From Patescibacteria group bacterium (GTDB taxonomy: Bacteria > Patescibacteriota > Minisyncoccia > Moranbacterales > JAKLHP01), in NCBI GenBank assembly GCA_043803385.1, contig JAZDKA010000049.1, positions 1 through 50,255 on the forward strand: a DNA stretch of 50,255 nt. Direction: 5' to 3'. The notes beneath the pieces were generated by a model. The model had not been told where the DNA came from. It saw only the letters and a program-made list of their open reading frames with translations, and ran no database searches. Every line of letters starts with the position of its first letter. Position 1 is the first letter of the stretch. A program made the translations under genes and the position numbers. Shown here in pieces: positions 4,598 through 41,119 of this stretch.

Positions 4598-5323
4598 ATG
4601 TCAAAAATGCAAAAATTATTAACTTTTATCGGACTTTTAGCCATTTTATCTGGCATTGCCTTTTTCTTTCTTCCTTCCCGAAAAAAAGAAATAACAGCAG
4701 AAAAAAAATCAGAAACCGCCCAAAATAGTGGAATTCCGACCGAAGACAGCGAAACGCAAAATCAAGATAATAATACTGATAATAACGCTGACATTGAAAA
4801 AAATAAGCCCAGTGTGATTGATGATAGCGACAAAAAAACCACAACCAGTGAAGAAAAAAGTAATTCATCAATCAGTCAGAGATTGGTAAGCTGGGGTTAT
4901 TCTAGCGCAAGCGGCCGAACAATCGACACAATTATAATCCATTCATCCTATGATGCCATAGGCGAAGATAAGTATGATGTTCCCGGGCTTATTAAAGAAT
5001 ACAAATCCTACAGGGTAGCCCCGCATTATCTTATTGATAGAAAAGGAAACATTTATCAATTGGTTAAGGACAAGGATATTGCCTATCACGCTGGAGAAAG
5101 CAAAGTGCCTGACGGAAGAAGCGGAGTAAATAATTTTTCCATAGGCATAGAGCTTATGAATTCAGAGTCAGATTCATTTACTTCGGCACAATATTCTTCC
5201 TTGAATAATTTATTATCTATTTTGAAAAACAAATACAAGATAAAATATGTTTTGGGACATGACCAAATCGCTCCTGGAAGAAAAACCGATCCATGGAATT
5301 TTAACTGGAAAAAAATTAATTAG
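4598..5323 (+). CDS. N-acetylmuramoyl-L-alanine amidase (Amidase_2/PGRP-like), membrane-anchored
   Basis: IIIHSS, PHYLIDRKGNIYQLV, AYHAG, FSIGIELMN and LGHDQIAPGRKTDPW match AmpD/amidase_2 motifs. Confidence 0.8.
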   Translation: MSKMQKLLTFIGLLAILSGIAFFFLPSRKKEITAEKKSETAQNSGIPTEDSETQNQDNNTDNNADIEKNKPSVIDDSDKKTTTSEEKSNSSISQRLVSWGYSSASGRTIDTIIIHSSYDAIGEDKYDVPGLIKEYKSYRVAPHYLIDRKGNIYQLVKDKDIAYHAGESKVPDGRSGVNNFSIGIELMNSESDSFTSAQYSSLNNLLSILKNKYKIKYVLGHDQIAPGRKTDPWNFNWKKIN

Positions 5324-7894: not shown

Positions 7895-8860
7895 CTATGC
7901 TCTTTCTGGATCAGGCAATGTTTTTTCAACAACTTCTTCGACAGATTCTACAGCTTTCTCTTCTTCCTTGATGCTAGCTATTTCCTTGAAAAACAGATAC
8001 CAGCTTGCCTGATATAAAACTTGGTAAACTGAACTCAATATAGCCAGGCAAATAATAAAAGCCAGGATTCCAAACAAAACAGCTATTATTATTCCAACTT
8101 TTGACAAGATAAAATAAAGAATGAATCCCATAGGAACAAATACAACAGCAGCTACTAATAAAATAATAAGCATAGCAAAAAGAAGTATCATGCTTATGGG
8201 AATAAAAACAAGAGCCATTATGATGCTCATTAAAATATTTTTTCTAAAAAGATAGTACCCTTTTTCCAGTGATTCTCTTATCCCAAGATCTGCAAGAACC
8301 AAATAAAATTGAGCATATTTTCTCGAAAAAGAAACCAGGATTACCAGGGGAATAAATATAATAATAGCCAGGAAGGCGGACAAGAATCCGAACAAATATG
8401 ATTTTAAGAAAAAAAGGAATGCTACCGGAACGCCAAGGATAATAAGAATTGCGATAATTAAAATCACAACTATTATTTCAAGCAAAAACAATTTCCAAAA
8501 ATACCTTTTCCCTTCCGCGATTCCTCTCTTGAAGCTTCCTTGATCATTTTTTTCTATTTTGTTTACTTCTTTGATTATTCCAGCTTGAGACAAAATTCGA
8601 AAAACAAAAACAGCTATCGCGAAAAGCGCCAGGATAATTCCCAGAGCAGCAACGATTTGCCAATATTGTTCAAAAAACCTGTTTAGCGTTTCTTCTTTCC
8701 CTGATATTCGTTTGTTAAAATCGCTTTCTCCTGGAAAATTGAAATTAAAGCTAGCGCCTCCTCCTAGTGCCAAAAACAGCCCGAACCACCAGAGATACCT
8801 GTTGCTCCAGGTGATTTTCCAGCCTTTTTTAATTATTTCCAAGAAATTTATATTATTCAT
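7895..8860 (-). CDS. Polytopic membrane protein, unknown function
   Basis: 321-aa ORF with many hydrophobic spans; overlaps the ftsH stop by 4 nt. Confidence 0.55.
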   Translation of the reverse strand: MNNINFLEIIKKGWKITWSNRYLWWFGLFLALGGGASFNFNFPGESDFNKRISGKEETLNRFFEQYWQIVAALGIILALFAIAVFVFRILSQAGIIKEVNKIEKNDQGSFKRGIAEGKRYFWKLFLLEIIVVILIIAILIILGVPVAFLFFLKSYLFGFLSAFLAIIIFIPLVILVSFSRKYAQFYLVLADLGIRESLEKGYYLFRKNILMSIIMALVFIPISMILLFAMLIILLVAAVVFVPMGFILYFILSKVGIIIAVLFGILAFIICLAILSSVYQVLYQASWYLFFKEIASIKEEEKAVESVEEVVEKTLPDPERA

Positions 8861-10674
8861 AAACCCTTAATTATTTGATTGAATTCATCTTTTTCTATCG
8901 TTTCTTTTTCAAGAAGTGTCCTGGCTATTTTTTCCAGCACTTGATTTTTTTCTTGGATAACCTTTGTTGAATTTTTGTATGCTTCATCAATAAATTGATG
9001 GACTTCTTTATCAATAGCTTCCGCCGTATGCTCGGAATAATTTTTTTCTTCGCTTATTTCTTTCCCAAGAAAAACAAGTTCTTCTTTTTTGCCGAAAGTT
9101 CTCGGTCCGAGCCCGCTCATCCCATAGCGAGTAACCATTTCTCTCGCTATATGAGTGGCTCTTTCGAGATCATTGGAAGCCCCGGTTGTAATATCGTTGT
9201 ATTTTATTTTTTCACTCGCATAACCACCCAGAAGAACAGCCAGTTCATCAATAAAATATTCTTTTGAATGAAGCCTTTTATCTTCAGTCGGAACTGCCAG
9301 AGTATATCCGCCGGCTTGGCCCCTGGAAATAATGGAAACTTTTTGGACAGGGTCAGCATTCTTCAGCTGTGACGCAACAAGCGCATGTCCGGCTTCATGG
9401 TAGGCAATAATCTCTTTTTCTTTTTCGTTTATTACCCTGCTTCTTCTTTCCGGTCCGAGAATCACTTTTTCAATTGATTCCGTAAGCTCTCTCATATCTA
9501 TCACTTTCTTTCCTCTTCTGGCTGAAAGTATTGCCGCTTCATTCACCAAATTAGCAAGATCAGCACCTGAAAATCCCGGAGTTCTTTCCGCTATTGTCCT
9601 TAAAACAACATTGCTAAAGAGAGGTTTTCCTTTAACATGAATTTTTAAAATTTCTTCTCGTTCATTAATATCAGGCAAATCCAGGACAACTCTTCTGTCG
9701 AATCTTCCGGGACGAAGCAGCGCCGGGTCAAGAACATCAGGGCGATTGGTTGCGGCTACTACAATTACATTTGTCTCGCTTTCAAATCCATCCATTTCCA
9801 CCAGTATCTGATTCAGTGTCTGCTCCCTTTCATCATGCCCTCCTCCGAGTCCCGCGCCTCTATGCCTGCCTACTGCGTCAATTTCATCTATAAAAACAAT
9901 AGCTGGAGCATTCTTTTTCGCTTGTTTAAATAAATCCCTAACTCGGCTTGCTCCAACCCCGACAAACATTTCCACGAATTCTGAACCGCTAATATTGAAA
10001 AATGGAACGCCAGCTTCCCCTGCTACCGCTTTAGCCATTAGCGTTTTTCCTGTTCCTGGAGACCCAAGAAGAAGAACTCCTTTTGGAATTTTCGCTCCTA
10101 TGGACAAAAACTTTTTCGGAAATTTTAAAAAGTCAACTACTTCGCAAAGCTCTTCCTTGGCTTCTTTGGCTCCGGCCACATCAGCAAAAGTTATCCTTTT
10201 TCTTTTGTCTTTCGGGTCAATCATTCTGGCTTTGCTTAGGCCGAATGAAAGTGCCTGCGAATTCCCTCTTTGCGCCTGGCGCATCATAAACCAGATAAAA
10301 CCAGCGATTAAAATAAAAGGAAGAAGAAATGGAAGGACAGTGCCGACCCAAAAACCAAGAGAGGATTCTCCCTTCACATTGATATTTAATTTTTGCAAAT
10401 TTTCAGTATCTACTCCATAGTTTTTGAGCGAGTCCGTAAGAGAACTATCAGTTTCTTTGGTAGCTTTCTGTTTGCTTCCATCCTGAAGCTCGACCTGCAA
10501 ATTGTTGCTTTCAACGGTTATTTGTTTGACTTTCCCATCATTAATTTCAGCCACTAGCTGACTAAGGTTAATTGTCTCCGTTTTTTGAGACGGTGAATTA
10601 TACAGGATAAATATTCCTGAAATAATGAGAAAAGTAATTATGATAAGGCTTATATTCTTTATCAATTTTTCCAT
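8857..10674 (-). CDS. ftsH: ATP-dependent zinc metalloprotease FtsH
   Basis: Two N-terminal TM spans, Walker A GSPGTGKT, the AAA second region of homology, and the zinc motif HEAGHA. Confidence 0.95.
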
Positions 10675-10710
10675 AAGATATTTTGGCTAATTCTTAATAA
10701 TTTTATAACT

Positions 10711-11664
10711 TTATTGCTTTTCTATGGTCAGTTTATCACCCCCGCGAGTTAATTTCAACCCTTTAAATAATACGGCCTGATTTTTGCTTTTAGTGCTCTT
10801 CAGAACTTTCAGCAATTCTTTCACATTAGAAATTTCAATATCTCTTAGGCTTCCCCTTTTTTCTTCAATAGCTTTCAAAATTATTCTTTTTTGGATAGCC
10901 GGATGTAGTTTTATAATTTCATTTGTTTTTAAAGCTTTGGTTTTTTTGAATATTTTTTCAGCAAAGCTAGAAATAAAATCGAGATCATCACTTATATTCA
11001 AAGAAGATTCAAGAATTGTTTTTTTGATATTGGGATTGAAATTTTTCTCAAGATACGGAATCAATTTATTCCTGATTTTATTTCTGAAAAACTTATCCGT
11101 CTTATTCGTCTTATCCATCCTATATTTTAACCTGTTGCTCTTCAAATATTCCAAAATTTCTTTTCTGGAAATTCCAAGAAGCGGCCTGATAATATTATTA
11201 CTTTTATATTTCATCCCGGAAAGTCCTTGAAGCCCCGCCCCGCGAAGAAGATGAAGAAAAAAGGTTTCTACCTGGTCGCCTTGGTTATGCGCCACCGTAA
11301 TATAATCAAAAGCTAATTTTTTCCTTGTCTTTTCAAAAAAATCATAGCGGATATTTCTTAAATTTTCTTCCGTAATCTCATTTTTCTTTAATTTATTTAC
11401 CTTTAATGCGCTTAATCCGAGCTGATATTTTTCAGCTAATTTTTGGACAAATTTTTCATCCTTTTCTGAATCCTTTCCCCGAAGCCTGTAATTTACATGA
11501 GCAATATGCAGCTCAATGTCATATTTTTCCTTTATTTTAGCCAAAATGTCCAAAAGGCAGGCACTATCCGGCCCACCTGAAACGCCAACAATAATCTTCG
11601 AATCTTTTTGCCAAAGATCATTAAGACTGGCAGTATTCTGGATGTTTTTAATCAGATTTTTCAT
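10711..11664 (-). CDS. tilS: tRNA(Ile)-lysidine synthase
   Basis: PP-loop SGGPDS near the N-terminus; tilS-ftsH adjacency is a common synteny. Confidence 0.85.
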   Translation of the reverse strand: MKNLIKNIQNTASLNDLWQKDSKIIVGVSGGPDSACLLDILAKIKEKYDIELHIAHVNYRLRGKDSEKDEKFVQKLAEKYQLGLSALKVNKLKKNEITEENLRNIRYDFFEKTRKKLAFDYITVAHNQGDQVETFFLHLLRGAGLQGLSGMKYKSNNIIRPLLGISRKEILEYLKSNRLKYRMDKTNKTDKFFRNKIRNKLIPYLEKNFNPNIKKTILESSLNISDDLDFISSFAEKIFKKTKALKTNEIIKLHPAIQKRIILKAIEEKRGSLRDIEISNVKELLKVLKSTKSKNQAVLFKGLKLTRGGDKLTIEKQ

Positions 11665-11781
11665 TCCCAGTAGTAGAATTTTGACATTTCAAAAACATAA
11701 TTATAACATCAAAATTCCAAAGCAGATTCTATTTTATTTATTAACTTACTTAAATTTGGGCAAAGCCCAGTCAAAATTTCA

Positions 11782-12345
11782 CTACTGGGCATTTAATTTA
11801 GATTTTATAAAATCCATCACTTTTTTAAATACTTCTTGAATGGAAAGATTAGTAGTATCTAGCACAAAATCATAATTCTTTTCATTTCGTATGTTTATCC
11901 CATAATAGTTTAGATACCTTCTGTCATCACGTATTCTTCTTTCCACAATACTTTTTAAAACTTTTTCTTCGGAATCTAAGCTATTCCCTTCATTCCGCTT
12001 ATTTTCCTTTTCCAGTTCTTTAAAAATTCTTTTAGCTCCTTCTTCATCACTAACTTTCAAATATATTTTTAAAGATTCAGGAATAAAGTGCCATAAAGTT
12101 CTGGTTTCAATTACTATATCTTTATGTTTTTTTGTCAGCTCAATTGCATAACTATCGACCTGCTTATCTGTTTCGGGACTTTCATCGCATAATTTGTGAA
12201 ATTCCTCCAGCGTTATTCTTTTTTCTTTCGCTATATCACGAAATATCTGACCCATATAAAATCTTGGATAGCCAAGTTCTTTGGCTATCATTTTAGCGAT
12301 TGTACTTTTTCCGGAACCGTGATCCCCGTTGAATGTAATTATCAT
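11782..12345 (-). CDS. cmk: Cytidylate kinase-like (d)CMP kinase
   Basis: P-loop GDHGSGKST at the N-terminus; located directly upstream of rpsA (conserved cmk-rpsA synteny). Confidence 0.7.
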   Translation of the reverse strand: MIITFNGDHGSGKSTIAKMIAKELGYPRFYMGQIFRDIAKEKRITLEEFHKLCDESPETDKQVDSYAIELTKKHKDIVIETRTLWHFIPESLKIYLKVSDEEGAKRIFKELEKENKRNEGNSLDSEEKVLKSIVERRIRDDRRYLNYYGINIRNEKNYDFVLDTTNLSIQEVFKKVMDFIKSKLNAQ

Positions 12346-12423
12346 AGCTTTATCTTTTTAATTATCTTTTGATTATAATCAAAAATGGACGCGCTGTCCA
12401 TTCTCGAAAATTATCATTTTCTC

Positions 12424-13821
12424 TTATTTTTCTTCTTTTTTAACCTTTTTTGCTTTTTTCTCTTTTTTACCTGTCAAAGCTTTCTTGTCCGCCAAAGCTT
12501 TAGCGTCAGCAGAAGCGGAAGCTGGCTTTTCTTCAATTTTTTCCTTCTTCTTCTTTTTCTTTTCGGTTTTTTTCTCTTCTTTTTTGTCTTTTTCGCCGGC
12601 CTTAATTTCTTCCGTATTAGTCGGCGTTAAGTCTGCGCTAGTCTGTGATTTGATCAAGATGAGACCCATTCGATGTTCTTTTGGCTCAATGGAAAGGATT
12701 TTCCAATCATAAATTTCTCCTTGAGCAAGCACGTCCTCCATTTTTTTATCCGGATAAATTTCCCGGAATTCGCTCACGTGAGCCAAACCATGGATATCTT
12801 TATCCAAATATACGAAAGCTCCGAAAGGATTAATTTTATCAACCTTTCCCTTGACTGTATCTCCCACTTTATATTTCTTTCCAATTTCGCTCCAAGGATC
12901 TTTTTTGAGAGCTTTTATAGAGAGCGAGATCCTGGTATCATCTATTCCGATAATTTGCGCTTCGACTTTATCTCCGGTTTTCACCACTTCCCTCGGATTG
13001 TCAATCAACTGCCAGGCTAATTCTGAAATATGGACCAGCCCTTCCAATTTGTCGGCATCGTTAGTTGAATCTCTTTTGGCGGGAGGCAGAAATTTAACAA
13101 AAGCTCCAAAATCAACTACCCCGCTTATTTCTCCTTCAACTACGTCTCCGACTTGAAGTTGAGAAACAACTTTTCTTTCTTTTTCGCTCATGGCGGCTTT
13201 TTCGCTAGCAATAAGTTTCTCCGATTCCCTATCGGCATCGATTATTTTTACCTGAATTTCTTTACCCACTAATCTCTTGAGAAGTTCCAGGATCTTATTC
13301 TTGTCTCCATCCTCTACTCGAGGATAATGTTCGCTGGAAAGCTGGGAAACAGGCAAAAATCCATTAATTCCGTTAATTTCAATGATAAGACCGCCTCGAT
13401 TAGCATCAAGAACTTTCGTATTAACAATATCCTGGGTATCTTTTTTTGATTCCAAATCATCCCAAGATTTTCCATAGCAGGCTTCTCTTATTGAAAGCTC
13501 GACATAACCGTCTTCATTTTCCAAATCAACAAGTGTTGCATTCACAATATCATCTTTTTTAATTTTGCTTGTTCCAAGTCCATCTTTTACTTCTTTGCCT
13601 AAAACAATTCCAGTTCCCAGATGTCCCAGATCAAGAAGAATGTAATTGGAATAAATTTCAATTACTTTTCCTTCCAAAATATCTCCGACATTAGGAATTT
13701 GTACCGGATTGTCATTAAGAAGATCTTCCATCGAAGATTTGCTCCCAGTTTTGCTTTTTACTTCCTTATCTTCTTTTATTTTATCAACTTCTTCGGCCAA
13801 TTTGTCTAAAATATTCGCCAT
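12424..13821 (-). CDS. rpsA: 30S ribosomal protein S1 with a Lys/Glu-rich C-terminal tail
   Basis: Repeated S1/OB motifs (GDILEGKVIEI, GDVVEGEISGVVDFGAFVKF, GDTVKGKVDKINPFGAFVYL). ATG at 13821 preferred over the TTG at 13860. Confidence 0.85.
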   Translation of the reverse strand: MANILDKLAEEVDKIKEDKEVKSKTGSKSSMEDLLNDNPVQIPNVGDILEGKVIEIYSNYILLDLGHLGTGIVLGKEVKDGLGTSKIKKDDIVNATLVDLENEDGYVELSIREACYGKSWDDLESKKDTQDIVNTKVLDANRGGLIIEINGINGFLPVSQLSSEHYPRVEDGDKNKILELLKRLVGKEIQVKIIDADRESEKLIASEKAAMSEKERKVVSQLQVGDVVEGEISGVVDFGAFVKFLPPAKRDSTNDADKLEGLVHISELAWQLIDNPREVVKTGDKVEAQIIGIDDTRISLSIKALKKDPWSEIGKKYKVGDTVKGKVDKINPFGAFVYLDKDIHGLAHVSEFREIYPDKKMEDVLAQGEIYDWKILSIEPKEHRMGLILIKSQTSADLTPTNTEEIKAGEKDKKEEKKTEKKKKKKEKIEEKPASASADAKALADKKALTGKKEKKAKKVKKEEK

Positions 13822-14022
13822 TTTATTACATTCAGCGATTGTGCCAATTCGCCTAATCAATTATTAAAAGCACAAAAAAATTTCCTAAAGATAGGAAATT
13901 ATTAAGAAATTAGACCGAGATTAAATCATCTCGAATATTCAATTTTCCTAATAATTAACCTTAAAACCAGTTTAACACACTATTTTTACTTTGGCAATAG
14001 ATAGATGGAAAATAAGTGTCGG

Positions 14023-14054
14023 AATACGTATTAAAGTAAGTATTAAAAAATATT
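14023..14054 (+). repeat. Direct repeat, left copy, flanking the 14.0-19.0 kb cassette
   Basis: AATACGTAT-TAA-AGTAAGTATTAAAAAA-TATT; 29 of 32 aligned positions match 18987-19017. Confidence 0.6.
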
Positions 14055-14064
14055 GAGCAAGCCA

Positions 14065-14092
14065 ACAAAAAACCAGCCCACGGGAGGCTGGT
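14065..14092 (-). terminator. Rho-independent terminator of the cassette operon
   Basis: On the minus strand: ACCAGCC-tcccgtg-GGCTGGT followed by TTTTTT. Confidence 0.75.
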
Positions 14093-14105
14093 AATTGTTC
14101 AACTT

Positions 14106-14942
14106 TTATACAAGGCTATATTTCATAAGCAAATCTCTGCAATCTATTGAGCTACAATTATCTCCTATAATTTTTTCACTTATGGTTCCTTTTTTGATAT
14201 GGCATTCTATCCCATTCTCTCTGCAAAATTTTATGACCTTATATGCCGATTCATTATAGAATTTTTTATTATCCTTAAAGTAGCTCACGATACTATTGTA
14301 ATTCCATTTTCCGAAAACTATCTTATCCACAAAGCTTATCTCTTTTAGAATTTTTTCAATATCTTGCCGAACAAAGTTAGCAGTTGGATACGGTTCCATA
14401 CTCACCCATGTTTTAAGGCCATTATTATGCAAAAATTTTAAAGCTTTTATTCTTTCTTTTACGGGAGCAGCAAACGGTTCGTGCTTTCTCTTAAATCCTT
14501 CGGACAAGGACACTATCGTTGAACCATATTCATTTTCTGATCCGTAGATTTCTTTTTTCGCCAATTGTTTTGAATAAACACCTTTGCTAATGCAAACGGA
14601 TTTTATCTTGTCCTGATTTAACCTTTTGATAACTTTCAAGCTCAAATCTATAATTTCTTCTTGTTTATACATAAATGGATCAGTCGCAAAACACATATAA
14701 ACATATTTTATATCATGCTTGTATTTGGGAATTTCTTTGTCTAGCAACTCAAGTGTATTTTCAACTATCTTAGGAGTTCTCCATTCTTTATAGCTATTGA
14801 TAATTCCGCAACGTTTTTTCATCATCATCGCGTAGCAAGGATATGTGCACCCATGAGAGCATCCTTCGGCATGATTCAGCCCATAATCGGCATACTCAAC
14901 ACCGCTTTTGTATAACAATGTTTTTCTTTTTATTTTCTGCAT
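14106..14942 (-). CDS. Three-Cys-motif radical-SAM-like protein (SplB/COG1533-like or Gp37/Gp68-like)
   Basis: NHAEGCSHGCTYPCYA gives C-x3-C-x3-C, one residue longer than the canonical C-x3-C-x2-C. Sits directly downstream of a TcmP-like gene. ATG at 14942 preferred; a TTG at 14960 is possible. Confidence 0.6.
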   Translation of the reverse strand: MQKIKRKTLLYKSGVEYADYGLNHAEGCSHGCTYPCYAMMMKKRCGIINSYKEWRTPKIVENTLELLDKEIPKYKHDIKYVYMCFATDPFMYKQEEIIDLSLKVIKRLNQDKIKSVCISKGVYSKQLAKKEIYGSENEYGSTIVSLSEGFKRKHEPFAAPVKERIKALKFLHNNGLKTWVSMEPYPTANFVRQDIEKILKEISFVDKIVFGKWNYNSIVSYFKDNKKFYNESAYKVIKFCRENGIECHIKKGTISEKIIGDNCSSIDCRDLLMKYSLV

Positions 14943-14965
14943 AAGCAAATTATAGCACAAAAAAA

Positions 14966-15799
14966 CTACAATCTAAATTTTTGCTGTCCGTCTAACTCTT
15001 TATTAAATATGTGGGACATTATTTTCTTTCCAGCTGGATGGTGAGTTGCTAAAATAAAATGATATAATGCCTTACCCCCTCTTAACCTTTTTCTTATTTG
15101 TTTGTATTCTACATAATCAAAGCCTAAATTTTTCAGATTGTTAATATAAAATTCTAATAATTTATTTTTCTTTTCACTTGGTCTTAAGATATTTTTGTCA
15201 TTATAGATTTCTGACCACTTATTAGTACCATAAAATTTATCTAATTTATTGCTATAATCTCTAGTTAATCTTACTAATGCCATATCGTAGGGATATAAAA
15301 TAAGAAGTTCCGCTTTTTTTATTTTTGATAAATATTTGATAGTTTCCCAGTCTAATTCTGGACCCTCTGGATCTAATAAAATTAAACAGCCAGTATATTG
15401 TGAAATATATTTATAAATATTCCTTAGGAGCAAGTTTGAATCAGTTTGCTTAATTAAAATTTTCTTTCTTTTTTCTAAATCTACTTCTTCATTTATAAAT
15501 TTTTCCAAATTTTTAATGTTTTTATTTTCAATTTCTATAAAAATATAACCCGTAAAATCTTTCTTTATTTTAAGAGATATCAATGCTGAGCCATCAACAA
15601 CTTTGCCCTTTCCACACTTAATACATCTGCAACCCCCTTTTGATGAACATTTCTGTTCACATAAAATACATTTACCAGTACCGGCAAAAGCATCAATATA
15701 AAATTTCCTTGGCAATCTCTTGGTGGCCACTAAATAGGCTTCGATATATTTTCTAAAATATTCCAATTTTTCTACCGTGTGCTCTTTTATTCTTCGCAT
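14966..15799 (-). CDS. tcmP: Three-Cys-motif partner protein TcmP-like (methyltransferase-fold-like)
   Basis: N-terminal HTVEKLEYFRKYIEAY...FYIDAFAGTGKC and a later LLDPEGPE fit my recollection of the TIGR04474 family pattern. Cys-rich insert CILCEQKCSSKGGCRCIKCGKG. Confidence 0.6.
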   Translation of the reverse strand: MRRIKEHTVEKLEYFRKYIEAYLVATKRLPRKFYIDAFAGTGKCILCEQKCSSKGGCRCIKCGKGKVVDGSALISLKIKKDFTGYIFIEIENKNIKNLEKFINEEVDLEKRKKILIKQTDSNLLLRNIYKYISQYTGCLILLDPEGPELDWETIKYLSKIKKAELLILYPYDMALVRLTRDYSNKLDKFYGTNKWSEIYNDKNILRPSEKKNKLLEFYINNLKNLGFDYVEYKQIRKRLRGGKALYHFILATHHPAGKKIMSHIFNKELDGQQKFRL

Positions 15800-15996
15800 A
15801 TATAATAGTCTAATAATACAGTGATATTATATCACTATAATATATCTTTGTCCTGTGGATAACTTTTTTTAGAAGTTTAAAAAAGCGTAATAAAGGGATT
15901 TTTTTGGATTTTTATTTATTTGTAATTTTTACTATTTTTGTAAATATTATTAACCAGTTTTATAAATTAAACCACTCTATTCGTATTAGAATAATT

Positions 15997-18492
15997 TTAT
16001 TTTAATAATTGATAATCAAATAATTTTGGCTGGATTTTTGTCTCGTAATATTTATTAAGTTTTGTCTTTAAAGCTAACAGTTTTGTATTTAATTGAGGAT
16101 AATCATAAACCGTCGTTTTATTCTCGTCTTTAAAGCTAGTATTAAGCTCGTTATCTATTTGATATGTCCCGTAAGTATATTTGGAATTGTAGTTTTTTGT
16201 CTTCTTCGCTTCATTTAATACTTCTTTAAATGAAGCTAGAAGTTCTTTCTCTGCTTCTGAAAGCTTAAATGATTTCAATTTTTCAATGGCAATAGTCTTA
16301 CCGTCAAAACATAATTCATTTCGGTAAAATCGGCCATCGGAACCATTAAATGATCTGCACTTATTAAAGTATGATAAACAAGTGTAAATCAAACAAGACT
16401 TTAGAAAATTATCGTCTCTCTTGTAATTATCGCCTCCATCGGAAGTCTTGAAGATAACTCCACTCTCCCACCACTTTTTACCAGAGTCATACTTTCCAGC
16501 ACAAAATAATGGTAACTTCTCAAAAAAATTATTAGTACGTAAATAAAAACCATGTTCGGCATACACTAATGTTCTAACTAGATTTGTTGAAAGTCGAGGA
16601 TGTTCAAATCCGAAATCTTGTGCAACCAAATATCCGATTATGTTGTAATTATAAAGTGGCTTTAATCTTGAATAACTTTTTCCCGACTCGTATCCACTCC
16701 AATCTAAGATTACCCCATTATTCATGTCATCCTCACAAATCGTTTTGTCATAATATGCACTAAGATTTTTATAAACCTTTTTAATTTCGACTTTCCCAAT
16801 TTTAACAACACTAGCTTGTGGCGACTGCGGATCATTCTGATCGTTTATATCGAAAATATCTAGCTCATAACTATCTCTTTCTTCTTCTTCAATATTTTGC
16901 CACCATACACATGATATGGCAGACCTGGAAGCGTGAAAGTAGTCGCGATTAAATATGCAACCGGTATGCATTCTCTTACTTATTAAATGGTGGGATTTAA
17001 AATACTTTGGAGGACTAAATATTATAGCGCTGTCATTTGGTTTCAATAAATAGTATTTAAATGCCGACCAAATAAATATATTAGCTAAGTCATTGCTTGA
17101 ACGACTATTTATTTCGGGATTTTGGGATATATCTAGTTTCATTTGCTCGGAGGCAAAGGAAGATTTCCAAGAAGTTTTAATACCCTTACTTGCGGGATTA
17201 TTCATAACTGCCCCAACATCACTGTATGGCGGATTCTCGAATAAAATAATATTAGTTTTTTTATTTTTGATAAAATTATTTAGCTCTACAATAGAATTAA
17301 TATACTCTTTGCTCATCTTAATTTTTGTTTTTCCTAGTATAAACTGCTCACTAAGAGCATCACCACCATTGACTAAGGCTTCTTTACCAGAAATTTCACT
17401 TGGTGGCGGAATAATCATTTTTACTTTATTGCCAAAACGTCCATTTAAAACAACCCATTCTTTTAATTCATAAGTGTTTACAATGGTATGTGATAATTCA
17501 TTATCAAAAATATAATCGTGAATATTTATTTTTGTTTTATATTTTTCTAGTTTACTTATGGTTATTTGATTAAAATCACTATGTTTAATAAGAGGAATAA
17601 TATTTGCTTTATCTTTTAAATATTTATCGACAAATTCATCTGACAAATATTTTCGCAATTCGCTGATAGTAATGTCGTTTACTTGTTTTTCAGTCAAAAA
17701 TTCCAAAAGATTGCCTGTACCCGCGCAACGGTCAAGGATAATATAATCATGATCCTTTGGAATCTGCGCAATAGCTTTGCGAACAAGTTCGGTGGCTTTT
17801 TTACAATAAGCAGGCGGTGTATAAAAAGCGCCTAGTTCCTTGCGGTGCATCTTATCGTTCAAAAGATCCATTATATATTTGAAATCTTTTTCCTTTCCTT
17901 TCCACGGATAAATTAACTTTTTAAAGTGCTTTGGCTCGCGAAATTCTTCGAAAAGTTTAATTTTGGTTGCTTTAGGATTTTCGTTATAAAAACGATTAGA
18001 CCATCCGACAACATCATAGATGTCAATTGTTATTTTGATAAAATTGTTTGTTTGAAGTAGCTCAGTGATACGTTGAATGCCGGCAGGTTTGTCATATTTA
18101 ATGACTTCTGGTTTTATTGCAGTACTAAATTCGTCGTTGCCCTTACTGGCAGCACCAATAAAAGGCGGGCGGTTTATGTAATCACGGGCAAAATCTTGAG
18201 AATTAAACAGGTAGGCAATTTCTTGATTTAGATCTGTCAATAAGATGTTAGCCGGAATGCTAACGCCCTTGATGCGCATATGGTTAAGATATTTTAGCGC
18301 TTGAAAAAGCGCTGTATTGATATTGTTGATATTAGGCTTGAACTCAAATATATTTCCGTTATAAATACCGTCGGTGTTATTACTAAGTTCGGTGTCCGTA
18401 ATCCCAAATTTTCTAAAAAATTCAATTTGACCATCACGTTCAGATAGAAAGTTATTCCCGGATTTTAATAATTTTCTTGTCATAAATTTCAT
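15997..18492 (-). CDS. MmeI-like Type IIG/IIL fused restriction endonuclease / N6-adenine DNA methyltransferase
   Basis: N-terminal FFRKFGI...DGIYNGNIFEFK (D-x8-ExK nuclease motif), GAFYTP, motif I DRCAGTGNLL and motif IV FENPPYS. ATG at 18492 is preceded by AAGAGGAAA. The tracked ORF extends to 18669 through regulatory sequence. Confidence 0.7.
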   Translation of the reverse strand: MKFMTRKLLKSGNNFLSERDGQIEFFRKFGITDTELSNNTDGIYNGNIFEFKPNINNINTALFQALKYLNHMRIKGVSIPANILLTDLNQEIAYLFNSQDFARDYINRPPFIGAASKGNDEFSTAIKPEVIKYDKPAGIQRITELLQTNNFIKITIDIYDVVGWSNRFYNENPKATKIKLFEEFREPKHFKKLIYPWKGKEKDFKYIMDLLNDKMHRKELGAFYTPPAYCKKATELVRKAIAQIPKDHDYIILDRCAGTGNLLEFLTEKQVNDITISELRKYLSDEFVDKYLKDKANIIPLIKHSDFNQITISKLEKYKTKINIHDYIFDNELSHTIVNTYELKEWVVLNGRFGNKVKMIIPPPSEISGKEALVNGGDALSEQFILGKTKIKMSKEYINSIVELNNFIKNKKTNIILFENPPYSDVGAVMNNPASKGIKTSWKSSFASEQMKLDISQNPEINSRSSNDLANIFIWSAFKYYLLKPNDSAIIFSPPKYFKSHHLISKRMHTGCIFNRDYFHASRSAISCVWWQNIEEEERDSYELDIFDINDQNDPQSPQASVVKIGKVEIKKVYKNLSAYYDKTICEDDMNNGVILDWSGYESGKSYSRLKPLYNYNIIGYLVAQDFGFEHPRLSTNLVRTLVYAEHGFYLRTNNFFEKLPLFCAGKYDSGKKWWESGVIFKTSDGGDNYKRDDNFLKSCLIYTCLSYFNKCRSFNGSDGRFYRNELCFDGKTIAIEKLKSFKLSEAEKELLASFKEVLNEAKKTKNYNSKYTYGTYQIDNELNTSFKDENKTTVYDYPQLNTKLLALKTKLNKYYETKIQPKLFDYQLLK

Positions 18493-18757
18493 TTTCCTCT
18501 TGATTTTATGGGACTTTTTTAGTATACTATACTTAAGAATAAATTTTATGCTTTCTAATAAATCGTTTATTTCTAGACTATCATTTATATTATTATTTTG
18601 GCAAATTATCTTGACAGAACAGTTTCTTTCAGGTAAAATTCCTTTAGGAATTTTACCTGAACAAATCATTAACCGCTTCGGCGGTTTTTTATTATTTACT
18701 TTGATAATCCCCCGGTTAAATATTGTTGAAGTAATTTAACGGGGCAAGCTTAACTGC

Positions 18758-18925
18758 CTATTTTTTCCAGTCTTTAATAAGTAGCCCGCCCCTTACCCTT
18801 TTGACGACTACTTTCTGTTTTTCTTTCCATCCTAATTCTTTTGCCATTTCAACCGGTAAAGTTACCGCCAGGCTGGTTTTGCCCACGCGGGTGATCTTCC
18901 TGGTGTTTTTGTCTTTTAACTTCAT
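18758..18925 (-). CDS. AbrB/MazE/SpoVT-type small DNA-binding protein (55 aa; below the ORF-track cutoff)
   Basis: Hand translation: MKLKDKNTRKITRVGKTSLAVTLPVEMAKELGWKEKQKVVVKRVRGGLLIKDWKK. The core SLAVTLPxExAKxLGW is the swapped-hairpin signature. Confidence 0.65.
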   Translation of the reverse strand: MKLKDKNTRKITRVGKTSLAVTLPVEMAKELGWKEKQKVVVKRVRGGLLIKDWKK

Positions 18926-18986
18926 ATTGTTTTTTGCCCCAGTTAAATATGCTTCGTATTTAACGGGGTAAATCTTTTAATTTCAT

Positions 18987-19017
18987 AATACGTATGGAAG
19001 TAAGTATTAAAAATATT
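18987..19017 (+). repeat. Direct repeat, right copy, flanking the cassette
   Basis: AATACGTAT-GGA-AGTAAGTATTAAAAA-TATT; see 14023-14054. Confidence 0.6.
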
Positions 19018-19083
19018 TGCTTCTTATACTTTTATCCTACGCCAAAATTAAATTGCGGTCAAAATGAAAAAGTTATACTTTGC

Positions 19084-20058
19084 TTAATTTGAAACAGGTT
19101 TTGTCTGTCCATTTCTTTCCATAATCAAAGGGATTTCTTGAAATTCCATACTCCTATTTTCAGCATCTATTTTTATTCTTACCGCCAGTCCGTTCATTGT
19201 TTCTGCGCTGAAATACTGGTCAAAAATGAAGTTTCCCAAGGAATAATAGATTCTCTTTCCTTTATATTCTTCCATATTTTGAACAACATGTGGATGGCTT
19301 CCGATAATCAAATCTGCTCCGGCATCAACGAAATTATGCGCTAAATTTTTTATTTTATCGCTTGGATTTTTTTCATATTCTTTCCCCCAATGGGCATAAA
19401 TCACGACAATATCAACTGTGTTTCTAAGCATCTCGATATTTTTATTTACTTCTTCGACACTAATTCCTCCGAATTGATTGTAATTTACCAAGCCAATTTT
19501 TATTCCGTTAATTTCTTTTACAATAGAATTATTTTCTTTATTTTTCGGATCGCCAAAATAATCAATCCCGTTTTCAGTTAAATATTTTTTTGTCTGGTCT
19601 AAACCATCGACTCCAAAATTCAAGACATGATTATTACCAAGACTAACCAGTTTAATATTATTTTTTGCCAAAGTATCAGCTAAACTTTTATCGAAAGTAA
19701 AAATAAAATGCCCTTTCTGTCCCGGCGTTGTCCCCACGCTGACTGATTTATTATCCGTTATCGGTCCCTCCAAATTTGCCACCACCAAATCATTACCTTT
19801 CAAAAAATCGGATATTTTCTCAAAAATAAAATCATTTCCTTTTCTATTGGTAAATTCCCGAATACTTCGATCAAACATCAAGTCTCCGACAAATAAAATA
19901 TAAACATCTTCTTTTAAATTTTCCTGAAGCTTATTTTGGGTTTTTTCCTCCAATTTGTCTGAAGCATTATCAATAATGCTACTCTTAGGCAAAGAACAGC
20001 CAGCTAGAAAAAATATTCCTATTAACAAGATTGCTATTTTTGCTTTAAAATAAGGCAT
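19084..20058 (-). CDS. CapA/PGA_cap family metallophosphatase-like lipoprotein
   Basis: Lipobox LAGCS; FVGDLMFDR, ANLEGPIT, LGNNHVLNFG and GSHPHV motifs. Confidence 0.7.
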   Translation of the reverse strand: MPYFKAKIAILLIGIFFLAGCSLPKSSIIDNASDKLEEKTQNKLQENLKEDVYILFVGDLMFDRSIREFTNRKGNDFIFEKISDFLKGNDLVVANLEGPITDNKSVSVGTTPGQKGHFIFTFDKSLADTLAKNNIKLVSLGNNHVLNFGVDGLDQTKKYLTENGIDYFGDPKNKENNSIVKEINGIKIGLVNYNQFGGISVEEVNKNIEMLRNTVDIVVIYAHWGKEYEKNPSDKIKNLAHNFVDAGADLIIGSHPHVVQNMEEYKGKRIYYSLGNFIFDQYFSAETMNGLAVRIKIDAENRSMEFQEIPLIMERNGQTKPVSN

Positions 20059-39350: not shown

Positions 39351-39434
39351 GCGGACGTGGCGGAATTGGTATACGCGCAAGCTTGAGGTGCTTGTGGGAG
39401 CAATCCCGTGGAGGTTCAAGTCCTCTCGTTCGCA
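39351..39434 (+). tRNA. tRNA-Leu(GAG)
   Basis: GCGGACG...CAAGC-TTGAGGT-GCTTG, long variable arm, GGAGGTTCAAGTCCTCT-CGTTCGC-A. Confidence 0.9.
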
Positions 39435-39440
39435 CATCTT

Positions 39441-39514
39441 GGATGGTTAGCTCAGTTGGTTAGAGCATTGCGCTTACATCGCAAGGGTCGCTGGTTCGAA
39501 TCCAGCACCATCCA
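39441..39514 (+). tRNA. tRNA-Val(UAC)
   Basis: GGATGGT...TTGCG-CTTACAT-CGCAA...CTGGTTCGAATCCAG-CACCATCC-A. Confidence 0.9.
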
Positions 39515-39542
39515 CTTTGATGATATAATGAACATAGCTAAT

Positions 39543-39614
39543 GCCTGGGTAGCTCAGTGGTAGAGCACATGACTGAAAATCATGGTGTCGGCAGTCCGAT
39601 CCTGCCCCCAGGCA
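39543..39614 (+). tRNA. tRNA-Phe(GAA)
   Basis: GCCTGGG...CATGA-CTGAAAA-TCATG...GGCAGTCCGATCCTGCC-CCCAGGC-A. Confidence 0.9.
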
Positions 39615-39625
39615 CAATTTATCGA

Positions 39626-39698
39626 GGGTCTGTAGCTCAGCGGTTAGAGCGGACGACTCATAATCGTTTGGTCGCTGGTTCGATTCCAGCCAGACCCA
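39626..39698 (+). tRNA. tRNA with CAU anticodon (elongator Met or lysidine-modified Ile2; not an initiator)
   Basis: GGGTCTG...GACGA-CTCATAA-TCGTT...CTGGTTCGATTCCAG-CCAGACCC-A. The paired 1:72 position argues against an initiator. Confidence 0.8.
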
Positions 39699-39800
39699 CA
39701 ATGAATTAGTTAAAAGTTTATAAAGTTATAAAGTTTCTAAAGCACTTTAGATATTTTCGTTTAGTTAACCTTAAAAACTTTTTACTTGATGAACTTATTT

Positions 39801-39875
39801 GCGGGTATCGTATAGTGGCTATTATATTACCTTGCCAAGGTAGAGATACGGGTTCGACTCCCGTTACCCGCTCCA
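39801..39875 (+). tRNA. tRNA-Gly(GCC), CCA encoded
   Basis: GCGGGTA...TTACC-TTGCCAA-GGTAG...CGGGTTCGACTCCCG-TTACCCGC-TCCA. Confidence 0.85.
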
Positions 39876-39895
39876 ATTGAAAACTTCATGAACCT

Positions 39896-39966
39896 GCGGG
39901 ATTAGTATAGTGGTAGTATGTGACCTTCCCAAGGTTAAGACGCCAGTCCGATTCTGGTATCCCGCT
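39896..39966 (+). tRNA. tRNA-Gly(CCC)
   Basis: GCGGGAT...TGACC-TTCCCAA-GGTTA...CCAGTCCGATTCTGG-TATCCCGC-T. Confidence 0.85.
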
Positions 39967-40945: not shown

Positions 40946-41018
40946 GGCCATGTGGTGAAGTAGCTAACACGGCGGTCTGCAAAACCGCTATTCGTGGGTG
41001 CAAATCCCACCGTGGCCT
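40946..41018 (+). tRNA. tRNA-Cys(GCA)
   Basis: GGCCATG...GCGGT-CTGCAAA-ACCGC...GTGGGTGCAAATCCCAC-CGTGGCC-T (U73 discriminator). Confidence 0.85.
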
Positions 41019-41035
41019 CATTTATTATCTAGTCT

Positions 41036-41119
41036 GGTCCAGTGGCGGAATTGGTATACGCACAGCACTTAAAATGCTGCGCTCGAAAGGGCTTGTGGGT
41101 TCGAGTCCCACCTGGACCA
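41036..41119 (+). tRNA. tRNA-Leu(UAA)
   Basis: GGTCCAG-TG-GCGGAATTGGTATACGC...CAGCA-CTTAAAA-TGCTG, long variable arm, GTGGGTTCGAGTCCCAC-CTGGACC-A. Confidence 0.9.

Follow-up and report, generated by a model that had tools for sequence, protein, structure and literature searches.

Do the two near-identical repeats that bracket a small restriction island in contig JAZDKA010000049.1 mark the places where foreign DNA was joined to the chromosome, or do they serve some function within that DNA? The 50,255-base stretch analysed here (hereafter, the window) carries these direct repeats on its minus strand at 14023-14054 (site L) and 18987-19017 (site R). Between them, on the same strand, lie genes for an AbrB-like protein, a large restriction-methyltransferase-like protein, a TcmP protein and a three-Cys radical-SAM-like protein, followed by a terminator, with cmk-rpsA on one side and a capA-like (PGA_cap/CapA) gene on the other. 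An earlier reading of the letters without database searches (the sequence-only reading) had given this order and these flanks, and both stand; it had also called the block an inserted defence or DNA-modification island, which holds as well, and its repeats att-like or target-duplication scars, which does not. That is, this is a real island with partly uncharacterised cargo, and its repeats are real and meaningful, not integration scars. We consider it probable, as a single joint reading, that the island was acquired horizontally, without a recombinase of its own, and was placed precisely in the gap from the capA stop codon to the rpsA promoter, and that both repeats are copies of a 22-bp binding site of the island's own AbrB, located within the imported DNA rather than at its junctions.

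The block at 13998-19083 (5,086 bp) is an insertion. By its RpsA relatives, the window belongs to the Moranbacteria, a lineage of the Candidate Phyla Radiation (CPR), and all window proteins were compared by tblastn with 80 related Moranbacteria rpsA loci (L-numbers, L001 to L116, denote comparison loci throughout). These loci share a conserved synteny, with gyrA-orf99-MBL divergent from rpsA-(cmk)-tilS-orf605 (the last a 605-aa open reading frame, ORF), and none of the four cassette genes was found near rpsA in any of the 80. In the closest relative, L001 (RpsA 83% identical), which is the only one to share with the window a capA gene between MBL and rpsA, the capA stop runs straight into a 150-nt rpsA leader that is nearly identical to window positions 13972-13821; homology to L001 ends at the capA stop (19084) and resumes at 13997. 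A comparison of the 14.0-19.0 kb block with its flanks, which the sequence-only reading had proposed, gives lower GC in the insert (31.2%) than elsewhere (36.5%), with tcmP two standard deviations low. GC at third codon positions (GC3) is 0.52 for abrB vs. 0.23-0.34 for its neighbours, and 0.23 for tcmP. The island holds no integrase, as had been stated, and Pfam detected no recombinase or integrase either in it or among the 10 other window proteins scanned; no tRNA gene was found at the insert junctions and no known RNA in the island by Rfam.

At the junctions, the functional capA 3' end, CCTGTTTCAAATTAA (P V S N stop; 19084-19098, minus strand), and a second, diverged capA 3' end, TTGCCAAAGTAAAAATAG (13980-13997, minus strand), are candidate left-hand and right-hand copies, respectively, of a target duplication. 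Read by codons, the window capA end matches that of L001 (PVSN-stop vs. PNSN-stop; cca aat tca aat tag) at 11 of 15 nt, counted by eye, a stretch that the MAFFT alignment places differently. The second copy, TTGCCAAAGTAAAAATAG, is identical at 15 of 18 positions to the last 18 nt of L001 capA and contiguous with the conserved rpsA leader; it also contributes TTGCCA, the -35 element of a promoter predicted for rpsA at 13969-13997 (TTGCCA-17-TAAACT, extended by a TG; promoter scan), which would explain its retention. The flanks of the insert overlap on the empty site of L001 by about 15-18 nt, which may be the signature of a short target duplication whose copies have since diverged and, possibly, the true junction scar. 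Exact-protein look-ups for the window CapA and RpsA gave no match, and hence offered no same-species empty-site contig for comparison.

The repeats lie inside these junctions, site L 25 nt and site R 75 nt within the insert. They had been described as a near-match of about 32 nt, at the positions given above, and so they are: the 27-nt core, AATACGTAT-NNN-AGTAAGTATTAAAAA (14023-14049 and 18987-19013), differs only in a 3-nt block (TAA or GGA), and over the core, the A-run and the TATT that follow, 29-30 of 32-33 aligned positions match, with one gap. The pattern AATACGTATNNNAGTAAGTATTAAAAA, with up to three mismatches allowed, finds these two copies and no other in the 50,255 bases, vs. an expectation of 0.00 from 100 dinucleotide-preserving shuffles. 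Read in the direction of the genes, each repeat consists of an imperfect palindrome of 22 bp, AATACTTAC-N4-ATACGTATT, preceded by a common A/T-rich flank, (C)AATATTTTT. Site L, the distal copy, reads AATACTTAC-TTTA-ATACGTATT at 14023-14044 with the A/T flank CAATATTTTTT, and sits 12 nt past the T-run of the cassette terminator; site R, the abrB-proximal copy, reads AATACTTAC-TTCC-ATACGTATT at 18987-19008 with the flank AAATATTTTT. The empty capA-rpsA site of L001 has no copy of the repeat, not the single one that an origin as att site or target duplication had led the sequence-only reading to expect.

The same 22-bp site recurs directly ahead of abrB genes in otherwise unrelated DNA. The abrB of the island (18758-18925, minus strand) encodes a 55-aa DNA-binding protein of the AbrB/MazE/SpoVT fold (PF04014, E 2e-8) with 458 homologues, the named ones mostly from Moranbacteria and other CPR. 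A single motif scan of metagenomes returned 14 loci, eight of which (L081-083, L085, L087, L090, L091, L094) we set aside as likely chance matches, mostly within coding sequence. In three others (L088, L089, L093) the site is directly 5' of an abrB homologue (67-85% identical): L089 and L093 carry the same 22-mer as site R, abutting the abrB ATG, with 95-97.5% identity to window 18972-19011 over 39-40 nt, and L088 has tandem sites upstream of abrB. The TTTA-spacer variant seen in site L also occurs in L086 (alone), in L088 (as the upstream member of the tandem) and in L092. Loci that were found through the AbrB protein rather than the motif show the same association; in L100-L104 a perfect 9-4-9 inverted repeat, AATACTTAC-N4-GTAAGTATT, directly follows a TATAAT box, with abrB starting about 30 nt further on, and in L111-L116 a variant of the site runs up to the abrB ATG itself. 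Neither in L111-L116 nor in L089 and L093 does a Shine-Dalgarno sequence separate site and ATG. Of 18 abrB loci, 15 have a sense-oriented site no more than 61 nt upstream of the gene, and among the protein-found contexts the site is upstream of abrB in four of five distinct ones, while in the fifth it is upstream of a co-directional gene fused in front of abrB. The sequence-only reading had worried that the repeat might be a common intergenic motif; its near-absence from the 1.3 Mb of the 80 Moranbacteria rpsA loci (no match with up to two mismatches, one with up to three) argues that it is not. Scans of viral contigs with the motif gave nothing, or chance matches without abrB, and hence no sign of phage origin.

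The second copy has a counterpart as well. L089 is, independently, the same proximal-plus-distal two-site layout around different restriction cargo: a TTCC-spacer site with abrB is followed by HNH, LexA-like, hsdM, a 273-aa gene and hsdS, and then by a second site in the same orientation, 5.7 kb downstream of the first, with the TTTA spacer and one mismatch (GATAC for AATAC), 140 nt ahead of a RhuM/Fic gene. Across loci, the left arm of the site is conserved and the right arm degenerate, and the arms vary without compensatory change; in the window, both copies keep seven of nine arm pairs and have a predicted folding energy of 0 kcal/mol as single-stranded DNA. The uncompensated variation and the lack of a single-strand fold point to a site in duplex DNA that is bound by a protein, and the obvious candidate for this protein would be AbrB, by its likeness to autoregulated AbrB/MazE-fold proteins.

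Based on these observations, we propose the following working for the island. AbrB would bind site R in its own leader and thereby set the expression of abrB and of the downstream IIG-like enzyme, a role that may be likened to that of the C proteins in classical restriction-modification systems. A predicted abrB promoter, TTGACC-17-TAGGAT, lies at 19034-19062 (minus strand; promoter scan), and promoter-like boxes, compared by eye, are also found in L089 (TTGATT-17-TAGAAT) and L093. The enzyme would methylate adenine of the host DNA and cut unmodified incoming DNA, and tcmP with its radical-SAM neighbour would form a separately promoted two-gene module, one partner having an RlmJ-like methyltransferase fold and the other being an SPL/DUF5131-like three-Cys radical-SAM protein (SPL, spore photoproduct lyase), that repeatedly travels with restriction systems. 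Site L would be a second operator, most simply that of the donor island's next transcription unit, carried along and cut 25 nt further on; it may also let AbrB act at the island edge, beside the rpsA promoter.

Several points weigh against this proposal. What ties AbrB to the site is co-occurrence, and site L has no convincing promoter or good -35 box, no gene directly downstream inside the island and no abrB remnant beside it. The abrB and methyltransferase genes are 265 nt apart with stem-loops between them, which leaves their co-transcription not assured, and the structural model of the large protein is of moderate quality (AlphaFold2 pLDDT 71), with Foldseek TM-scores of about 0.2. For the insertion, the two proposed duplication copies are only about 8/15 identical to each other, and the junctions were set against a fairly distant empty site (that of L001, RpsA 83%). 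Finally, L109 has sites that mostly are not next to abrB, and its array fits an AbrB regulon and a cassette-boundary site equally well.

This array raises the alternative that the 22-bp sites are cassette-boundary recombination sites for a recombinase encoded elsewhere, with defence modules being shuffled like integron cassettes or dif-flanked modules; the window would then be one module between two sites and abrB merely the first gene of many modules. In its favour, the six sites of L109, all gene-sense, occur in nearly every gap between the transcription units of a variable region, and three of them lie within a 63-nt composite repeat (a GC-clamped hairpin, then TAAAC, then the site). In the same direction point the two direct copies around different restriction cargo in both L089 and the window, the position of abrB and its site at the edge of regions that differ among close relatives, and the two hairpins that bracket the window's abrB. 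However, the Pfam scans of the island and of the 10 other window proteins showed no recombinase, the junctions with L001 fall outside the sites, by 25 and 75 nt, no copy is present at the empty site, and L100/L102 cease to be homologous to L101/L103 about 12 nt ahead of the site rather than within it. The 4-bp spacer is short for a tyrosine recombinase, the sites show no attC-like single-strand folding, and the variable abrB regions of L100, L101 and L103 carry one site each, L103 and L100 doing so despite their variable cargo. Moreover, the genes travel without the site: methyltransferase homologues in L095-L099 and tcmP-radical-SAM pairs in L105-L108 have no flanking repeats, which the sequence-only reading had named beforehand as telling against its own view of the repeats. 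We therefore regard boundary sites of this kind as unlikely, and we see only a slender chance for a broader version in which palindrome and GC-clamped hairpins together delimit the exchangeable modules of a CPR-specific defence cassette system, moved by a recombinase acting in trans or by AbrB-family proteins, with the window as one module made of controller, new type IIG family and TcmP/radical-SAM pair. Hence, we prefer to read the sites as operators of a small regulon, because the junctions in L001 and the break among L100-L103 are outside the sites, because L100, L101 and L103 are single-site, because methyltransferase and tcmP modules occur elsewhere without sites, and because no recombinase is at hand.

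It is also conceivable that the distal copy is a functionless by-product, that is, a duplicated or hitch-hiking piece of the abrB promoter-operator, and that the pair has no joint role. The bare surroundings of site L (no good -35 box, following gene or abrB remnant), the occurrence of its TTTA variant as the upstream tandem member in L088 and alone in L086, and the compositional mosaic of the cassette (the GC3 contrast of abrB and tcmP given above) are in line with such an origin; yet its arms and 10-nt A/T flank are intact and identical to those of site R, only the spacer being different, which suggests maintenance, and L089 shows proximal and distal sites independently. On balance, this too appears improbable. 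An action at the RNA level, with the palindrome folding into a stem-loop of the 5' leader that would stabilise the mRNA or control its translation, would suit L100-L104, where the perfect 9-bp inverted repeat comes just past the -10 box and so at the mRNA 5' end, and L089, L093 and L111-L116, where the site abuts the ATG without a Shine-Dalgarno sequence. It is nonetheless very unlikely given that pairing is broken without compensation (seven of nine pairs in the window copies), that the window copies fold at 0 kcal/mol as single-stranded DNA and that site L lies after the terminator. As for attL/attR or target-site duplications of an integrated mobile element, the insertion is real, the two direct copies do stand close to its ends, and the window has no others; there is also precedent for restriction systems inserting between direct repeats (PMC2853133). 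Both copies are, however, inside the imported DNA, the L001 empty site is without the sequence, the proximal copy belongs to the conserved 5' region of abrB in unrelated loci, and neither an integrase nor a tRNA gene is found at the junctions, all of which makes this origin hardly credible. A likeness to dif/XerCD sites or T7 promoters was limited to a few A/T-rich bases and was dropped.

Returning to the preferred operator reading, its main target would be the large protein. The ORF as read spans 15997-18669 (890 codons), and translation most likely starts at M60 (18492), which is preceded by a GAGG ribosome-binding sequence, since the homologues (about 815 aa) align from there; this gives a protein of 831 aa (15997-18492, minus strand). 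The further 59 codons at 18493-18669, which begin just past a stem-loop (18671-18686), probably remain untranslated. The protein has an N-terminal D-x8-E-x-K, motif I (LDRCAGTGN), motif IV (NPPY) and a C-terminal domain, with motif I before NPPY, the order of the gamma-class N6-adenine methyltransferases; D41, E50, K52, D254, G258, G260 and N420-P421-P422 are invariant in 30 homologues, and the nuclease-type motif, D41-x8-E50-x-K52, falls in a poorly modelled part (pLDDT 45-70). Foldseek gives as best match BpuSI, a type IIG enzyme (E 2e-6, 605 columns), then CamA, DrdV (789 columns; a type IIL enzyme of the MmeI family), BsaXI and LlaGI, with a Foldseek probability of 1.0 to CamA, BpuSI, M.BseCI and the methylation subunits of type I systems. 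By sequence, no Pfam, NCBIfam or PADLOC model matched at E <= 0.01, the MmeI, Eco57I and N6_Mtase models included, and the PDB gave no sequence or profile match. Given the invariant motifs and the structural matches, the protein is, as modelled, a divergent single-chain, type IIG-like restriction-methyltransferase of MmeI-like layout that forms a separate family by sequence. The description of it as MmeI-like thus applies to its architecture and not to family membership, as it lacks an MmeI Pfam match and is closest in structure to BpuSI.

Set beside the type IIG/IIL enzymes (BpuSI, MmeI, DrdV), the protein shares the order of parts along a single polypeptide (here about 830 aa), with a putative N-terminal D...ExK nuclease motif first, then the gamma-class N6-adenine methyltransferase, then a C-terminal domain; it differs in having no sequence likeness to them in Pfam, NCBIfam or the PDB, and belongs to a separate unannotated family found here mostly in CPR. 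This family has >2,578 homologues, none with a Pfam domain; its named members are all from CPR and every one is annotated as hypothetical. The homologues are found in varied housekeeping contexts and once (L095) directly behind an abrB homologue, where a 63%-identical abrB is 4 nt upstream of a 73%-identical methyltransferase gene. In L096-L098 a PemK/MazF toxin gene directly follows the large-protein homologue, which, together with the AbrB/MazE-fold gene that precedes it in L095, hints at a link of the family to MazEF-type modules. Within the island Pfam found no PemK/MazF toxin gene, and its AbrB is accordingly not half of a MazEF/PemIK pair.

The tcmP-radical-SAM unit follows at 14106-15799. 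TcmP (three-Cys-motif partner protein, 277 aa; 14966-15799, minus strand) matches TIGR04474 over its full length (E 1e-44; 153.2 bits, cut-off 53) and PADLOC PDC-M41A (E 1e-37). Its AlphaFold2 model (pLDDT 90) is a Rossmann methyltransferase-like fold with a Cys-rich insertion, and the closest PDB structures are the rRNA adenine-N6 methyltransferase RlmJ and DUF519 relatives (E 3e-8, TM 0.52-0.56). Invariant in TcmP are a motif-I-like D36-F38-G40-G42 (D-x-F-x-G-x-G) and D143-P144. The three-Cys radical-SAM-like protein (284 aa; 14106-14960, minus strand) starts 5 nt after tcmP and matches PF04055 (33.2 bits, cut-off 29.5); its motif, GCSHGCTYPCYA, is C-x3-C-x3-C, not the canonical CX3CX2C, and is conserved in L105 and L106. 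Weak matches connect it to DUF5131, to the PA0069/Rv2578c families and to 'radical SAM mobile pair protein B', and its L106 homologue weakly to SPL; it has no PADLOC match (of the PDC-M41 components only PDC-M41A matched), and PDB sequence and profile searches returned nothing for either protein. The RlmJ-like adenine-methyltransferase fold of TcmP points to nucleic-acid modification, and in the working proposed above the pair would probably add a second line of defence by modifying or processing nucleic acid. In the literature searched, TcmP was mentioned in annotation tables only, and functional work on it did not turn up.

The pair is linked to defence genes elsewhere. Radical-SAM partners with 66-76% identity follow tcmP in L105-L108; in L105 only 2 nt separate the pair from a canonical Eco57I/MmeI-type IIG gene ahead of it, and in L106-L108 it is beside a PIF1 helicase (Pfam recognised nothing in the two genes ahead of tcmP in L106). 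On plasmids, the pair is found beside BREX genes (Nostoc), beside an N6-methylase with AAA ATPase and McrC (Nocardioides) and near a 921-aa DNA methyltransferase (Deinococcus). It therefore resembles the known TcmP/three-Cys pair (TIGR04474; PADLOC candidate PDC-M41) in its score above cut-off, in the three-Cys partner 5 nt downstream and in its defence context, and differs from the TcmP/DUF5131 (Gp37-Gp68) pairs in that its partner is nearer a radical-SAM/SPL-like branch without a PADLOC match. A predicted promoter for the unit, AGGACA-17-TG-TATAAT (15826-15854; consensus match only), is part of a feature at 15820-15854 on the minus strand, in which a perfect palindrome, AGTGATAT-A-ATATCACT (15820-15836), overlaps the predicted -10 box and could be the operator for some other regulator. 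The unit is closed by an intrinsic terminator at 14072-14092 (minus strand; 8-bp stem, five G-C pairs, T-run; folding z-score -3.7), which confirms, in slightly narrower limits, the strong terminator placed before at 14065-14092.

The surroundings of abrB are themselves composite. A relic abrB start, ATGAAATTAAAAGAT (18972-18986, minus strand), abuts site R and is 13/15 identical to the real start, ATGAAGTTAAAAGAC (18911-18925), which lies 61 nt beyond site R, after a 46-nt hairpin-containing insertion. The GC-clamped hairpin of this insertion, CCCCGTTAAAT-N9-ATTTAACTGGGG (18937-18968, minus strand; folding z-score -4.45), and a second one just downstream of abrB, CCCCGTTAAAT-N13-ATTTAACCGGGG (18710-18744, minus strand; z-score -2.7), bracket the gene, and this CCCCGTTAAAT...ATTTAACNGGGG pair comprises the only two copies in the window, with 0 expected. 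These features suggest either the insertion of a small hairpin element, with a duplication of 15 nt, or the replacement of an abrB allele. Integron attC sites have the order R''...R', and we rejected a reading of the hairpins as attC because the core-like heptamers, GTTAAAT...ATTTAAC, are in the reverse order and the hairpins are only 32-35 nt long. From integron cassette arrays in general the island further differs in that its 22-bp sites do not fold and no integrase was found.

In its outline as an insertion, the island may be compared with the restriction-modification insertions without mobility genes reported by Furuta, Abe and Kobayashi (2010; PMC2853133), which have target duplications of 45-49 nt (their Table 2; search threshold >30 bp). 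It resembles them in carrying restriction (R) and modification (M) functions in an insert of <20 kb (here 5.1 kb, with a fused R-M gene) without integrase or transposase, in its lower GC, in its insertion at a gene 3' end and in flanks that overlap on a relative's empty site. It differs in its candidate duplication, which is diverged and, at about 15-18 nt, falls short of >30 bp, in its prominent 32-nt repeats, which are not that duplication, and in the empty site, which comes from a different species-level genome. With C-protein systems the island shares a small DNA-binding protein at the head of a restriction gene and a palindromic site in the regulator's own promoter or leader, and the abrB homologue of L095 is translationally coupled to the enzyme gene. 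Known C proteins are of the Xre-type helix-turn-helix kind, however, whereas the island's regulator has the AbrB/MazE fold (swapped-hairpin beta-barrel, PF04014); furthermore, the enzyme here is a fused R-M, so R need not be delayed relative to M, a second site is 5 kb away, and the binding by AbrB is putative. The literature search found no AbrB-type restriction controller. The KorA/KorB operators of IncP plasmids form a multi-operator regulon, and the array of L109, with a short palindrome before many accessory transcription units, is similar to it; the differences are that ours is chromosomal CPR DNA, that the regulator would be AbrB by implication and that the window has two sites only.

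The case shows a genome-reduced CPR bacterium that gained defence genes as a compact integrase-free block, dropped precisely into the gap between one gene's stop codon and the promoter that serves an essential ribosomal protein gene. Three leads come with it: an AbrB-fold 'controller' with a defined 22-bp putative operator, where a helix-turn-helix C protein would be usual; type IIG-like enzymes that form a large family without annotation, seen here mainly in CPR lineages; and the recurrent physical linkage of an uncharacterised TcmP/three-Cys radical-SAM pair with restriction and BREX systems. If the recurring site were a module boundary, and not an operator, it would represent a new way of organising defence islands.

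Among the other abrB loci, in those of L100-L104 a GIY-YIG gene precedes abrB and its site, which border a region that differs among close relatives and whose variable content includes an OLD-family nuclease, SNase, helix-turn-helix-Dcm-Vsr restriction genes, and pyrF, inserted or absent; this region looks like a defence hot spot. Dcm-Vsr clusters are headed by abrB in L109/L110 and lie about 3.5 kb downstream of it in L103/L104. Pfam identified nothing in the abrB neighbours of L095, L109 and L111, and pairwise BLAST among these neighbours linked only the genes beside Dcm of L103 and L109. The array of L109 extends over 7898-18580 (JGI Ga0130016_10000298) and contains two further recurring intergenic motifs, AATTACGTAATTAATTAC, which is also beside the site in L092, and CACCCTGTTAAAT. 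In L084, which has no abrB homologue, two near-perfect 22-bp sites (5105-5126 and 12221-12242) stand in direct orientation, 7.1 kb apart. By eye, their surroundings in translation show an ORF of 1,172 aa and one resembling an ATP-binding protein, around which the two sites lie; more TACGTA palindromes flank the sites, which may belong to an unrelated regulator whose recognition sequence is similar.

Finally, a few observations concern the surroundings of the island. The window has a cluster of at least eight tRNA genes at 39351-39966 and 40946-41119, with single tRNAs scattered elsewhere, none of which adjoins the island. The rpsA leader of about 150 nt is near-identical between window 13821-13997 and L001 6183-6380, including the hairpin TCGAGATGATTTAATCTCGG (13915-13934), and in L001 the rpsA -35 box sits inside the capA 3' end; this may be a conserved regulatory leader. 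In six of the rpsA loci (L021, L035, L039, L041, L046, L075) 1.4-4.2 kb of unrelated DNA lies between MBL and rpsA; insertions may therefore recur at this position upstream of rpsA.

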